Source: Candidatus Altimarinota bacterium | GTDB taxonomy: Bacteria > Patescibacteriota > Gracilibacteria > UBA1369 | Direction of reading: 5' to 3' | Assembly (NCBI GenBank): GCA_963677745.1 | Contig: OY782391.1 | Location: forward strand, 896,001 to 960,000 | DNA: 64,000 nucleotides | Shown: piece by piece, positions 17,527-20,316 of the stretch | Layout: each line of letters begins with the position of its first letter | Position numbering within the stretch: the first letter of the stretch is position 1 | Program-made: the position numbers and the translations under genes | The notes under the pieces: generated by a model | Seen by the model: the letters and a program-made list of their open reading frames with translations, nothing else | Databases searched by the model: none | Told to the model about the DNA's origin: nothing

Positions 17527-17574
17527 AAGCCCGCATGGAACCCCGCTTCGGCGGGGCCCCCAGCGGGCTTTTTT
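17527..17574 (+). terminator. Intrinsic terminator of the S-layer gene
   Basis: AAGCCCGC..CCCCGC-TTCG-GCGGGG..GCGGGCTT + T tract. Confidence 0.85.
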
Positions 17575-17697
17575 GTGCCTGTTTAACTATTGACAAATAT
17601 ATGAAAATATTGTATCAAATAGATGTCAAGTTGACCTTCGACATTTAGCTCCCGATTCCGAGGAGGGAAGAAGGGAGGAAAGGGAAAGGAAAAAAAC

Positions 17698-18609
17698 ATG
17701 AAGCGCTACGGATTTGGACTGTTTGTGGTGGCTGGCATGCTGATGCTGTCGGCGCTGCTGGGGCAGGCCTGTGTGTTGGATACATACGGGACACTGTTCG
17801 CTGACGGCGGCGCGGATGCCGGTCCGGACTGCAACGCTCTCTGCGAGGAAGCGGCTGCAGGAAGCTCCGGAAATGCCGGAACTGCCGGTCAGGGCACGCC
17901 CGATGTGGATGTGCCTGACACCTGCGACTGCGGAGATGCCGGAAGCGGTGGATCTGCCGGAGCAGGAGGTACTGGTGGAAGCGCCGGAACGGGCGGAGCC
18001 ACCGGCGGCACCGGAGGCTCGGCCGGACAAGGCGGAGCAACCGGAGGTACTGGCGGATCTGCCGGAAGCGGCGGAGAAGCTGGACAAGGAGGAACTGGCG
18101 GAGCAGCCGGAGGCGGCGGTCAGGCCGGACAAGGCGGAGCCGGCGGTTCGGGGCCAACCTGCGTAGTGGCAGGAGACGACGGAACTATCAACAAGATCAC
18201 CGCCGAAGCCATCCGGGTCTATCTGCACTATGCAGACGATTCCGAGACGTTTCTGTCCTACAGCCCGGTCAACTTCAGCTTCGATACCAAGCCGCTGTCC
18301 GCTCAGGCTGTTGTCTTGGGCAGCAATGGGCTGAGCTTCGGACTGTGGCATGATTCCACGCCTACACCCACTGTGCTCTATACAATTGATGAGGCAACCT
18401 TGCCGGCCGCAGAATGCACCGGAGTCGACATCAGGAGCATCGAGTGCAGCCGGATCTTGGCGAAGAGTTTCAGGTGCCAGTTCCCGCCCTACAACGAGGT
18501 GGTCGGCTGTCCAGCCAACGTTGCGTTCACCGCGCAGCTGGCCAGTGACAGCTATGCCGATCCGTCTGGGGGATACCAGATGGTACTCGCTGACATTTAC
18601 TGCCCCTAA
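17698..18609 (+). CDS. Gly-rich putative lipoprotein, cassette 1
   Basis: Signal ending LGQAC, GGSAG/GGTGG repeats, C-terminal 6-Cys domain paralogous to cassette 2; purine-rich SD. Confidence 0.85.
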   Translation: MKRYGFGLFVVAGMLMLSALLGQACVLDTYGTLFADGGADAGPDCNALCEEAAAGSSGNAGTAGQGTPDVDVPDTCDCGDAGSGGSAGAGGTGGSAGTGGATGGTGGSAGQGGATGGTGGSAGSGGEAGQGGTGGAAGGGGQAGQGGAGGSGPTCVVAGDDGTINKITAEAIRVYLHYADDSETFLSYSPVNFSFDTKPLSAQAVVLGSNGLSFGLWHDSTPTPTVLYTIDEATLPAAECTGVDIRSIECSRILAKSFRCQFPPYNEVVGCPANVAFTAQLASDSYADPSGGYQMVLADIYCP

Positions 18610-18646
18610 ACCCCAACCCCTCACCCGACTCAGAAAGGGAGTCAAA

Positions 18647-18791
18647 GTCGAAGTTCAACAACAGCTCGCCGACGCTTGAGTTGCCAAACAACCGCAAGGT
18701 AGTAGCAACGCAGGCCCAGGCGGAAAAGCAAGCCCCGCGCTGATCGTCCATACAGGACTTGATCGCGCGGGGCTCTTCGACGTGTTTTTTT
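18647..18791 (+). ncRNA. Conserved structured 3' RNA element, copy 1
   Basis: Matches 19725-19860 with compensatory changes (GTTGC/GCAAC vs GTCAC/GTGAC); ACC-GCAA-GGT tetraloop; long GC hairpin followed by a T tract. Confidence 0.75.
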
Positions 18792-18905
18792 ACGCCCAGA
18801 TTGACAAAATTAGAAAAAAACGTATAAGTATAAGAGTAACATTGATCTTCGACATACACGCTCCCATCCCTGAAAAGGGACAATGGAAGGGAAAGGAAAA
18901 TTCCG

Positions 18906-19652
18906 GTGAACAACAAGTACAATCATTTCGTCTGGTTTTTCTGCCTGTTAACAGGCTGTCAGAGTGACGATGCCGCACTGTTCGGCGAAGGAGGAGCTCC
19001 CGCCGGCGGAAACGGCGGCGCTGGAGGTGAAACGGGCATCGCCGGACAGGGCGGCACCGCAGGAACGGCTGGAGCCGGTGGAATTGCCGGTTCGGATGCC
19101 GGCGGCGCTGATGCAGGTGCCGGAGGAACTGCCGGTAGCGGTGGAATCGCCGGCAACGGAGGAAATGGAGGCGCCGGCGGCGCTCTGCCTCTGGTCTGCA
19201 CTCCTGGTGCGGCCGACAACCCTGCCTCATGGTCGATCAACGGCGGGACCAAAGCATCGGTCTATCTGCGCTACGCAGACGGCACCGAGGGCTACAGCAC
19301 CGCCAACCCCAGTAACATCAACTTCCCGCTGGATTTCCCGGGACAACTGGTGGGGTCCACGGCCGACGGCATGACTATCAACCTGATCTACAACTCAGGC
19401 TCGGCGCCCGGCAACGACTTCTACCAGGTGACGACGGACAACGTACCGGAATGCGCCGGAACGAACTTCTACAGCCAGGCCTGCGACCAGAAGGTGGCCC
19501 AGGACTTTCGCTGCCTCTACTTTCCTGCAGAGGAAGCGGATTGCGGCAACGTCAAGGCGGCCTTCCTCTCGCTGGGGAAGCAGAAGTCGTACTCGGCGGC
19601 CTTCGCCGGCAACCGGAAAGTGCTGGTATCCGTCCGCTGTTCCTCGCCCTGA
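18906..19652 (+). CDS. Gly-rich putative lipoprotein, cassette 2
   Basis: GTG start after GGAAAGGA, LTGC lipobox, GGAGG/DAG repeats, VYLRYADG...ECAG...FRC domain shared with cassette 1. Confidence 0.85.
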   Translation: MNNKYNHFVWFFCLLTGCQSDDAALFGEGGAPAGGNGGAGGETGIAGQGGTAGTAGAGGIAGSDAGGADAGAGGTAGSGGIAGNGGNGGAGGALPLVCTPGAADNPASWSINGGTKASVYLRYADGTEGYSTANPSNINFPLDFPGQLVGSTADGMTINLIYNSGSAPGNDFYQVTTDNVPECAGTNFYSQACDQKVAQDFRCLYFPAEEADCGNVKAAFLSLGKQKSYSAAFAGNRKVLVSVRCSSP

Positions 19653-19724
19653 ACCGGTCCTGCCGCAACAGCATATTTCCCGCCGTCCCATGTCTCCCAC
19701 CGAACCCCGATTCCATCGGGAGCA

Positions 19725-19860
19725 GTCGAAGATCAATGGCATCTCGCCCAGGCTTGAGTCACCAGACAACCGCAAGGTAGTAGTGACGCAGGCCAAAGCG
19801 GAAAAAAAGGCCCCGCGTGATCGTCCTTCCGGACTTGATCGCGCGGGGCTCTTCGACGTG
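19725..19860 (+). ncRNA. Conserved structured 3' RNA element, copy 2
   Basis: Same helices and invariant CAACCGCAAGGTAGTAG and GGACTTGATCGCGCGGGGCTCTTCGACGTG blocks as copy 1. Confidence 0.75.
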
Positions 19861-20316
19861 CCTGCCCGGCTCCAGCCCCCGCCCGAGCCCTGCAAAGTAT
19901 TGCTGCATGCAAATCGCGCCAGAAAAAATTTAACTAAAATTAACCGAAACTTAATCCTGATTTGTCATGATTGCGTCAATTTATCATGTCATTTCCGCTG
20001 TATGCTGCCGCTTCTGACCTCTGTCCTGATCTGGCTGCTGTTTATGGCCGTTTCCGGCCATCCGCCGCTGTCGCCGGGTTGAACCATTCTGTCTGCCACT
20101 TTTGTGCCCGGGCCCAAATTTATCCCGAATTTATCTTCATTTCATGCCGGCCTGCCATAATCAGACCCGGTCAGCTGCCCTCACGGCCCGGGCCCGGCTC
20201 AATCTAAATGCCCTGGAATAGCTCCGCGCCCCGGGCAGCTGCTCAAAAGACAATTTTCTTGGTATACATTCCCCGGTTTGGCATCGGCGTTTTTTTGTAC
20301 TATATTCAGCTCAGTT

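Follow-up and report, generated by a model that had tools for sequence, protein, structure and literature searches.

A repeated 3'UTR element beside Peribacteria envelope lipoprotein genes as candidate half of a 5'-3' end-pairing mRNA module

The 3'UTRs of two neighbouring lipoprotein genes carry a repeated element of ~140 nt that folds into conserved, covarying helices, and the sequence just ahead of its hairpin domain is complementary to the leader of the same gene. We consider it probable, at roughly 55%, that this repeat supplies the 3' half of a module in two parts, which pairs the two ends of envelope lipoprotein mRNAs in Peribacteria and would stabilise or regulate them. Both copies lie in the window, the 64,000-nt stretch of DNA that was analysed, which belongs to a 1.34 Mb genome of the Peregrinibacteria/Peribacteria (candidate phyla radiation). 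Here, the two lipoprotein genes stand in tandem and adjoin an S-layer gene, with one copy of the element 3' of each.

In the proposed module, the 3'UTR would consist of four parts. Firstly, a strand would pair with the 5'-terminal ~25-40 nt of the leader on the same mRNA (helix P0). Secondly, a conserved hairpin domain would follow 0-17 nt beyond this strand, made up of P2, P2a and a variable distal part; in most cases this distal part is a hairpin whose internal loop is invariant. A linker rich in A and the terminator hairpin P3 would complete the 3'UTR. P0, P2 and P3 could then meet in a three-way junction, burying the 5' end of the message beside its 3' end. Such a closed form may shield an abundant surface-protein mRNA from end-dependent decay, or it may meter the use of the mRNA. 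In the genus of the window, the nucleotides past P3 have turned into a copy of the core 7-mer of the leader, so that the 3'UTR strand could either close a local junction through helix P1 or pair with the leader, giving two exclusive states.

The locus and the two copies

The features of the locus are as follows, in window coordinates.

17590-17618, + strand: predicted sigma-70-type promoter of gene 1, read from the sequence (-35 at 17590-17595, 17-nt spacer, -10 at 17613-17618)
17629-17666, + strand: P0 5' strand in the gene 1 leader, from the RNAduplex core test; holds the 7-mer 17636-17642
17698-18609, + strand: gene 1, ORF for a 303-aa predicted lipoprotein with Gly-rich linker and Cys-rich C-terminal domain
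18625-18660, + strand: P0 3' strand of copy 1, from the core test; includes the shared 7-mer 18647-18653
18647-18784, + strand: copy 1 of the element
18665-18723, + strand: P2 domain of copy 1, from folds and covariation; P2 is 18666-18670/18719-18723
18674-18678/18711-18715, + strand: P2a of copy 1, from folds
18680-18684/18705-18709, + strand: P2b of copy 1, from folds and covariation
18685-18704, + strand: apical hairpin of copy 1 with internal loop and GCAA loop, from folds
18724-18730, + strand: A-rich linker of copy 1, from the fold
18731-18774, + strand: P3 of copy 1, a long GC-rich hairpin with UU bulge, from the fold
18775-18791, + strand: 3' strand of P1 in copy 1 (18775-18781, mimics the leader 7-mer) and T7 run (18785-18791)
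18801-18828, + strand: predicted promoter of gene 2, from the sequence (-35 at 18801-18806, -10 at 18823-18828)
18839-18866, + strand: P0 5' strand in the gene 2 leader, from the core duplex; holds the 7-mer 18847-18853
18906-19652, + strand: gene 2, ORF for a 248-aa paralogous lipoprotein with GTG start and lipobox
19717-19739, + strand: P0 3' strand of copy 2, from the core test; includes the shared 7-mer 19725-19731
19725-19860, + strand: copy 2 of the element
19743-19801, + strand: P2 domain of copy 2, from folds; P2 is 19744-19748/19797-19801
19752-19756/19789-19793, + strand: P2a of copy 2, from folds
19758-19762/19783-19787, + strand: P2b of copy 2, from folds
19802-19857, + strand: A-rich linker (19802-19808), P3 (19809-19850) and 3' strand of P1 (19851-19857) of copy 2

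The starts and ends of transcription of both genes are placed by prediction from the sequence; the promoter layout of gene 1 is repeated upstream of all homologues. The gene 1 protein matched no Pfam or NCBIfam family, and a protein atlas search returned hypothetical proteins only, at scores of 0.85 or less. The two proteins share 26-29% identity in their C-terminal domains.

An earlier note on this DNA had reported a two-copy repeat with a defined set of helices, two compensatory pairs between the copies and no U tract in copy 2, and all of this was recovered. BLAST aligned the copies with 85% identity over 139 nt. The minimum free energy (MFE) fold of copy 1 reaches -70.5 kcal/mol (z -7.00) and that of copy 2 -78.3 kcal/mol (z -5.97), with none of 200 shuffles as stable in either case, and both folds contain the same three-way junction. 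The copies differ in P2b by exactly two compensatory pairs. A run of seven T follows copy 1, and copy 2 is indeed without a U tract.

Beyond these two, the 1.34 Mb host genome holds no full copy, and the P3 hairpin alone recurs once outside the window (G000:C1:969220-969294). With two full copies and one P3-only copy in this genome, a dispersed repeat of the REP/MITE kind could be ruled out. Contigs of two related strains show no variation inside either element. The contigs of a third run carry two low-depth changes, one of which, at 19849, keeps its P3 pair as G-U.

Comparison with Rfam 15 by cmscan, one of the checks named in the earlier note, did not place the element in a known family. At gathering threshold, the whole window gave four tRNAs only. 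At E <=10, the best match within 18400-20100 was F6, with 24 bits against a threshold of 46 and on the opposite strand; six others fell far below threshold, and no ribozyme or riboswitch family matched. A description of the element was likewise not found in literature searches on Peregrinibacteria RNA motifs and on structured intergenic RNA of the candidate phyla radiation.

The P2 domain and P3 in related 3'UTRs

Related elements were found 3' of homologous genes in five further genomes (G001, G002 with two, G004, G024 and G015) and on one soil metagenome contig. Homologous loci were sought with a 4-sequence protein alignment. BLAST and a covariance model, R1, built from the two window copies only, gave matches 3' of homologous genes only (G002 at 81%, G024 at 75%, and G001). 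The elements in G004, G002a, the metagenome contig L048 (identical with L049) and G015c were recognised by eye and by folding. The sample is thus small and related, with ~10 instances from six genomes of one family (the host G000 and the five named above) and the one metagenome contig.

They share one layout, in which the basal helix P2 is joined by P2a, a helix of 5 bp that hardly varies, and by a distal hairpin that does; a linker, rich in A or in purines in every homologue, then leads to the GC-rich hairpin P3. The order P2, internal loop, P2a and distal part was obtained in eight of eight P2 domains folded in isolation. Conserved U-G pairs in P2 and P2a fit the sense strand only.

To describe the covariation, a 5-sequence alignment fitted to R1 was used, in which 98.4% of cells are paired. 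Double-sided changes were counted at 17 pairs, compared with 5.1 +/- 1.8 in shuffles (0 of 500 reached 17), and four of the five P2b pairs covary. Because the rows of G002b and G001 are mis-registered in P2 and P2a, we rely on these pair counts only in P2b, the apical stem and P3. When the homologues are aligned with MAFFT, P2 and P2a are shifted as well, by 1-4 columns, since junction lengths differ between members; for this reason no broad covariance model was obtained. A core pattern scanned against 401 genomes of the class returned the two window copies only (reversed control: 5 hits in 5 genomes), and this pattern fixes a 3-nt junction and is therefore blind to members with a 4-nt junction.

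The distal part is less uniform, and in G004, G002a, L048 and G015c it is replaced or absent together with the invariant loop. The earlier note had read its GNRA loop and its AGUA internal loop, taken as loop E-like, as marks of a tertiary-structured RNA. The former is not conserved: GCAA occurs in three of the five copies with this hairpin, and G002b and G001 have other tetraloops. AGUA is invariant in all five, yet it faces a loop of 6 nt that is rich in A and C and contains no GAA, so the likeness to loop E is not supported at the level of sequence. MFE folds pair part of this internal-loop region.

Regarding P3, a U tract directly follows the hairpin in G024, G004, G002a, L048 and G015c, where it is an intrinsic terminator of the ordinary kind, and no U tract follows it in copy 2, G002b and G001. 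In the case of copy 1, 10 nt separate P3 from the T7 run, which comes directly after P1; a simple terminator scan flagged neither window copy. The proposal of a functional RNA domain in place of a mere terminator was supported in part. It is supported for the P2 domain, which is conserved and covaries across genera beside proteins that are only 26-42% identical, and not for the P3 half, which in relatives is an ordinary terminator.

Complementarity between leader and 3'UTR

The 7-nt strand at the start of each copy can pair with the terminal 7-mer of that copy, forming P1, and equally well with the identical 7-mer in the 5' leaders. P1 is seen in the MFE fold of copy 1 and is confined to the genus of the window. 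As a conserved local helix it was ruled out, because MFE folds of the full 3'UTR place the closing helix differently in each relative. The mutually exclusive folds that the earlier note had proposed for this 7-mer were borne out, and the leader pairing is far longer than claimed there, at 14-29 bp. P0 has the shared 7-mer at its core. Over its first 25-40 nt, each 5' leader is complementary to the 3'UTR of the same gene just before P2.

To quantify this complementarity, an RNAduplex core test was used in which leader positions -72 to -30 are compared with the last 40 nt or fewer ahead of P2. For gene 1, P0 reaches -39.7 kcal/mol with 29 pairs (z -7.2, 0 of 500 shuffles). For gene 2, the core reaches -32.9 kcal/mol with 20 Watson-Crick pairs, 14 of which form one unbroken run (z -6.8, 0 of 500 shuffles). 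Over the seven testable loci, z ranges from -2.6 to -7.2 in all seven, at most 7 of 500 double shuffles match the observed energy, and P0 ends 0-17 nt from P2. When the whole leader is compared with the 3'UTR up to P2, five loci give z values of -7.3, -5.7, -5.65, -4.0 and -3.7, and two give only -1.2 and -1.9. The former of these two is G002b, where P0 is weak and the co-fold gain is -4.3 kcal/mol. In the other six of the seven loci, P0 forms on co-folding while P2 and P3 are retained, and the net gain lies between -17 and -22 kcal/mol.

The pairing is specific as well. Six of the seven 3'UTRs have their own leader as best partner and the remaining one prefers the leader of the paralogue, while the P0 sequences themselves differ between genomes. 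Among the 32 long ORFs of the window, gene 1 is the top outlier with a z of -6.6 (next -3.5, median -0.15), and genome-wide, where z was computed for those 170 of 1014 crude genes that had the lowest energies, the two genes rank first and third. A further outlier of this ranking, C1:716346-717278 (thioredoxin-reductase-like), was set aside as different in kind, its flanks being neighbouring coding sequence. The distant paralogue G015a has neither the P2 core nor P0 (z +0.95 and -0.27).

Occlusion of the Shine-Dalgarno region by the 3'UTR was considered separately and found no support. The inner half of the leader against the 3'UTR after the stop codon gave z values from +0.46 to -1.6 in five of six loci, and only G024 was significant (z -3.5). 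Elsewhere than in G024, a purine-rich inner leader faces a pyrimidine-rich 3'UTR, which is an effect of composition only.

Altogether, we infer that P0 would form in the cell, would act in cis rather than in trans, and could affect the stability or the translation of the mRNA. A more far-reaching version of the end-pairing module, which we advance tentatively and consider doubtful, sees a closed-loop mRNA device. Here, P0, P2 and P3 would act as a conserved three-way-junction clasp that locks the ends. In the genus of the window, the P1 mimic would allow this clasp to sense an intact and free 5' end and to switch between a tail closed on itself and an mRNA whose ends are paired, which would set the lifetime of the message. 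The P2a helix and the invariant internal loop might serve as docking site for some protein of these minimal-genome bacteria.

Competing readings and known systems

Many 3'UTR-derived small RNAs consist of a seed, a structured hairpin, an A-rich stretch and a terminator. The element has the same order of parts, and it could accordingly be read as a small RNA, processed or independently made, that acts in trans with the 3' strand of P0 as seed for the leaders of both paralogues; P2 would then be a scaffold or protein-binding hairpin, P3 the terminator and P1 a helix masking the seed. The paralogues cross-pair no less well than cognate leader and 3'UTR do (-37.5 kcal/mol for leader 1 with 3'UTR 2, compared with -32.9 kcal/mol). 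However, no promoter-like site was seen within the gene ends, the own leader is the preferred partner at all loci except one, and single-copy genomes offer no other target. The only evident target differs from that of such small RNAs in being the leader of the own gene or its paralogue, and we regard this explanation as unlikely.

Distinctly unlikely, in our judgement, is an elaborate terminator and 3'-end stabiliser with a functionless leader complementarity. The canonical P3 with U tract in the five relatives named above would agree with it, as would the recurrence of P3 alone elsewhere in the genome as a terminator-like hairpin and the plain terminators of the homologues in G003 and G017. 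It leaves P0 unexplained, which is significant in seven of seven loci, cognate-specific and adjacent to P2. It would account neither for the near-invariant P2a sequence across genera nor for the fact that copy 2, G002b and G001 have lost their U tracts.

A third reading is set at the level of DNA. The P0 strands on either side of each gene would be inverted repeats, imperfect and ~25-50 bp long. A recombinase acting on them would flip the coding segment against a fixed promoter, giving on/off phase variation of a surface protein, and P2 and P3 would be an unrelated terminator region. P0 itself carries no strand signal: its cores hold 137 Watson-Crick pairs, 2 G-U pairs (2 of 139) and 5 A-C mismatches, and the antisense strands pair equally well or better, so that the energetics are compatible with a DNA-level inverted repeat too. 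Copy 2 has a perfect 14-bp core in its repeat, and the repeats flank envelope-protein genes next to an S-layer gene; such surface-protein genes are typical targets of phase variation. Against this, the genome has no match to a serine recombinase or resolvase family, and the nearest of its three tyrosine recombinases lies 33 kb away. The orientation of promoter, gene and P2/P3 is identical in all seven loci with both flanks, and there is no conserved antisense ORF. Contigs of four runs contain no strand-switch joint, which is weak evidence since contigs drop minor forms. Moreover, the repeat varies in sequence between genomes and keeps its complementarity, which fits selection on pairing and not a recombinase site, and it begins a few nt past the predicted transcription start and stops at P2, an RNA domain of the sense strand. 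For these differences from known invertons we hold this reading to be still less probable than the terminator.

Finally, a ligand-binding or self-cleaving P2 domain, that is a riboswitch or ribozyme in the 3'UTR, is very improbable: the invariant internal loop and the near-invariant helix would suggest specific recognition, but no Rfam model matched even at E <=10, four relatives do without the distal part and its loop, and the conserved core is so small and so largely helical that it leaves no room for a pocket.

Returning to the end-pairing module, candidate-phyla-radiation bacteria have genomes of ~1 Mb and few regulators, and to our knowledge almost nothing is known about their post-transcriptional control. 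We are likewise aware of very few genes for which pairing of 5' and 3' UTRs within one bacterial mRNA is documented, with icaR as the reference case. The pairing predicted here covaries across genera and would be physically coupled to a conserved hairpin and terminator. If true, this family of end-pairing mRNA modules would be the first conserved one in bacteria, and it would provide a compact, portable element for probing how paired ends affect mRNA decay and translation.

Several known systems share single features with the module. The processing stems of 16S and 23S rRNA are long-range helices that bracket the rRNAs in operon transcripts and serve as RNase III maturation sites. Here too, a predicted long-range helix would flank a functional RNA of ~1 kb and both strands co-evolve, with the difference that a protein-coding message is enclosed. 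End-dependent decay is known to be slower when RNA ends are paired, and the 5' hairpin of ompA and REP elements are examples of stabiliser hairpins. In the module, the 5' end would be shielded by pairing with the 3'UTR, in contrast to the local hairpin of ompA. With intrinsic terminators, the element shares the GC-rich hairpin P3, followed by a U tract in most relatives; it differs in the additional conserved P2 domain in between and in the three members without a U tract.

The closest parallel is the icaR mRNA of Staphylococcus aureus, in which the 3'UTR and the 5'UTR of one message pair with each other (Ruiz de los Mozos et al. 2013, PMC3868564). When a short C-rich motif there pairs with the Shine-Dalgarno region, initiation is blocked and an RNase III site arises (PMC3868564). 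Both cases are bacterial mRNAs with complementary 3' and 5' UTRs, as predicted from sequence for seven of seven loci in our analysis. Compared with icaR, the statistically supported helix lies in the 5'-terminal part of the leader and not at the Shine-Dalgarno region, and it is a covarying helix of 14-29 bp across genera and not a short C-rich motif. It also abuts a conserved hairpin and terminator, an arrangement predicted here by computation.

The tandem lipoprotein genes and their repeats

The repeats follow two tandem genes of a genome (G000) that consists of one contig of 1,335,835 bp, the window being C1:896001-960000. The features are:

17698-18609, gene 1, 303 aa, tandem paralogue of gene 2
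18647-18784, copy 1 of the repeat, 3' of gene 1
18647-18653 with 18775-18781, P1 of copy 1, a 7-bp closing helix
18906-19652, gene 2, 248 aa, tandem paralogue of gene 1
19725-19860, copy 2 of the repeat, 3' of gene 2
19725-19731 with 19851-19857, P1 of copy 2, a 7-bp closing helix

Each copy starts about 40-75 nt past the stop codon. The tandem is flanked by a 1453-aa SLH-domain protein upstream and an ABC-2/ABC transporter pair downstream. The products of both genes are predicted to be lipoproteins in which a Gly-rich linker is combined with a C-terminal domain rich in Cys, and no Pfam or NCBIfam family was found for either. With a single-protein query, homologues were detected in 6 of the 205 genomes of the order, all within one family (f1); a profile search detected them in 8 of the 36 f1 genomes, including three distant paralogues in G015.

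Regarding gene 1, position 18018 is joined directly to 18600 in contigs from two runs of a closely related strain, so that 581 nt are skipped, i.e. part of the Gly-rich region and the entire C-terminal domain, which may be a true deletion variant or an assembly artefact in repeats. A 339-aa antisense ORF (17626-18645, minus strand) spans gene 1 from repeat to repeat. Because the reading frame antisense to gene 2 is interrupted and forms two ORFs, it was attributed to the GC-rich Gly/Ala codons and not regarded as a gene.

Further structures were observed nearby. For the upstream SLH gene, the terminator (17529-17574) consists of a nested hairpin and a T run. Its outer stem and internal loops are found again ahead of the lipoprotein-gene promoters in G004, G002a, metagenome contig L047 and G015a; it is a candidate second conserved RNA structure of the locus. 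A non-coding stretch of about 420 nt separates copy 2 from the ABC-2 transporter gene. Within it, a motif of about 26 nt (20196-20221) is shared with the corresponding flanks of G002, G024 and G017, and a GC-rich palindrome (20100-20121) recurs in G002; by eye, neither matched a sigma-70 promoter.

A common fold and its relatives

The two copies are 85% identical (BLAST) and are predicted to fold into one common three-way junction. Copy 1 reached -70.5 kcal/mol (z -7.0) and copy 2 -78.3 kcal/mol (z -6.0), with none of 200 shuffles equally stable in either case. Inside P1, the P2 domain comprises three helices (basal P2, a 5-bp P2a and distal P2b) and an apical hairpin that carries a tetraloop and an asymmetric internal loop, the latter invariant. 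It is followed by an A-rich linker of 7 nt and a long GC-rich hairpin, P3. Every helix proposed in the earlier note was found in both copies, and comparing them bore out its two compensatory pairs. Copy 2 indeed lacks a U tract, and copy 1 has a T7 run after P1. Searched with cmscan, the element matched no Rfam family.

P3 alone occurs a third time, outside the window and between convergent genes:

C1:969220-969294 (locus L003 1496-1570, minus strand), third copy of P3

This copy shows 90% identity over 50 nt and has its T run on the opposite strand; P3 is therefore a terminator-like module elsewhere in the genome.

Among 61 relatives, BLAST with the element matched only G002 (81%) and G024 (75%). 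G001 was added by a covariance model, R1, for which only the two window copies served as input. Further members emerged once the 3' flank of every protein homologue had been read and folded: G004, G002a and L048, a metagenome contig of soil type to which L049 is identical, share the plan, and G015c has a minimal form. The flanks of G003, G017, L047 and G015a held plain terminators or none. A core pattern with a fixed 3-nt junction, which excludes members with a 4-nt junction, matched only G000 itself among 401 genomes of the class (two matches; five in the reversed control).

All members have P2, P2a, the linker and P3 in common, and all eight isolated P2 domains fold to one architecture. The distal part varies. 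It is a hairpin with an invariant loop in both G000 copies, G024, G001 and G002b (which has one extra hairpin), a different hairpin in G004 and two hairpins in G002a; it is absent from L048 and G015c. The earlier note listed a GNRA loop, such loops marking tertiary-structured RNAs; the tetraloop is not the same in all five copies with this hairpin, so conservation does not extend to a GNRA contact. In a five-copy model-fitted alignment, which leans towards R1 and has wrong P2/P2a registers in two rows, 98.4% of cells are paired, double-sided changes occur at 17 pairs (5.1 in shuffles) and four of five P2b pairs covary. Folds of the isolated domains show C-G to U-A exchanges in P2. P2a is nearly invariant in sequence and holds a conserved U-G pair, which indicates that the sense strand is the functional one. 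This near-invariance, together with the invariant internal loop, suggests recognition by a putative trans factor. A U tract directly follows P3 in G024, G004, G002a, L048 and G015c, and P3 is thus a terminator there; in copy 2, G002b and G001 the U tract has degenerated into the P1 3' strand.

Complementarity between leader and 3'UTR

The 7-mer proposed to act as a switch does occur after P3 and in the 5' leaders, but the real leader complementarity far exceeds 7 nt. It would form P0, a predicted long-range helix between the leader and the 3'UTR of the same gene just before P2. Whole leaders were compared with their 3'UTRs at seven loci.

Leader (-70 to start codon) against 3'UTR (stop codon to P2), 300 dinucleotide shuffles: energy; shuffle mean (both kcal/mol); z
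Gene 1: -52.0; -23.0; -7.3
Gene 2: -54.0; -30.0; -5.7
G024: -38.0; -18.5; -5.65
G004: -49.9; -34.8; -4.0
G002a: -51.1; -32.3; -3.7
G002b: -38.3; -33.3; -1.2
L048: -21.5; -15.7; -1.9

When only the outer half was taken (leader -72 to -30 against at most the final 40 nt ahead of P2), all seven loci were significant (z -2.6 to -7.2), the observed energy being reached by 0 to 7 of 500 double shuffles per locus. With 14-29 pairs each, the helices reach to within 0-17 nt of P2; their sequences vary from genome to genome. The 5' strand of P0 would begin a few nucleotides after the predicted transcription start, as judged from promoter spacing. Co-folding leader and 3'UTR retained P2 and P3 and added P0, with a net gain of -17 to -22 kcal/mol in six of the seven loci and -4.3 in G002b. 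No such complementarity was seen in G015a, a distant paralogue without the P2 core.

Gene 1 was the extreme outlier in flank complementarity among 32 long ORFs of the window. Genome-wide, 1014 crude genes were compared; of the 170 with the lowest energy, ranked by z, genes 1 and 2 came 1st and 3rd. The only other gene with comparable flank complementarity, ranked 2nd, is thioredoxin-reductase-like and lies outside the window (C1:716346-717278; z -6.1, -41.8 kcal/mol); it was rejected as a comparable element, both flanks looking like neighbouring coding sequence.

The inner half, i.e. the Shine-Dalgarno region against the 3'UTR just past the stop codon, paired no better than shuffles in five of six loci. 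Because this pairing mirrors a purine-rich leader facing a pyrimidine-rich 3'UTR, we make no claim that the ribosome-binding site is occluded. Both start codons are preceded by unusually long purine tracts (17645-17697 and 18870-18905) in which GGA/GGGA units repeat, and the 3'UTRs directly past both stop codons are pyrimidine-rich, a complementarity that is compositional only. The GGA repeats could be putative sites for an RNA-binding regulator.

A possible end-pairing module, alternatives and known systems

From comparative evidence on about ten related instances, we consider it slightly better than an even bet (about 0.55) that the motif forms the 3' half of a module pairing the two mRNA ends. 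In it, the 5'-terminal leader would pair with the 3'UTR beside P2 and the terminator hairpin, and the resulting three-way junction would bury both mRNA ends. The analogy of stabiliser hairpins at 5' termini and of 3' hairpins suggests that this might protect against end-dependent decay, or meter message use. In the genus of the window, the leader core is copied in the tail that follows P3, and the 7-mer strand could choose between P1 (local, self-closed) and P0 (end-to-end). This corresponds to the switch proposed in the earlier note, its partner now being defined as the leader strand of P0.

An sRNA derived from the 3'UTR and acting in trans on the leaders is unlikely; the cognate leader was the best partner for six of seven 3'UTRs, the exception being the paralogue pair in G000. 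Rather less probable again is a plain terminator that also acts as a stabiliser. Slightly behind it comes an inversion switch at the DNA level. P0 consists almost entirely of Watson-Crick pairs (137, with 2 G-U pairs and 5 A-C mismatches) and is as stable on the antisense strand, so on energetic grounds an inverted repeat at the DNA level is indistinguishable from a helix of RNA. However, no resolvase-family gene was found in the genome, and the nearest of its three tyrosine recombinases is 33 kb off. Furthermore, all seven loci with both flanks show a single orientation, the repeats diverge between genomes while complementarity is kept, and P0 abuts a domain with sense-strand G-U pairs. A riboswitch or ribozyme is highly improbable.

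No description of the element was found in the literature on Peregrinibacteria RNA motifs and on structured intergenic RNA of the candidate phyla radiation. The proposed end pairing resembles rRNA processing stems, which bracket an RNA as P0 brackets one of about 1 kb. Among known systems, the Staphylococcus aureus icaR mRNA is closest, its 3'UTR pairing with its own 5'UTR (PMC3868564). In icaR the pairing involves the ribosome-binding site, whereas the element described here is predicted to pair the 5' end, covaries across genera in its pairing, and is coupled to a conserved hairpin and a terminator.
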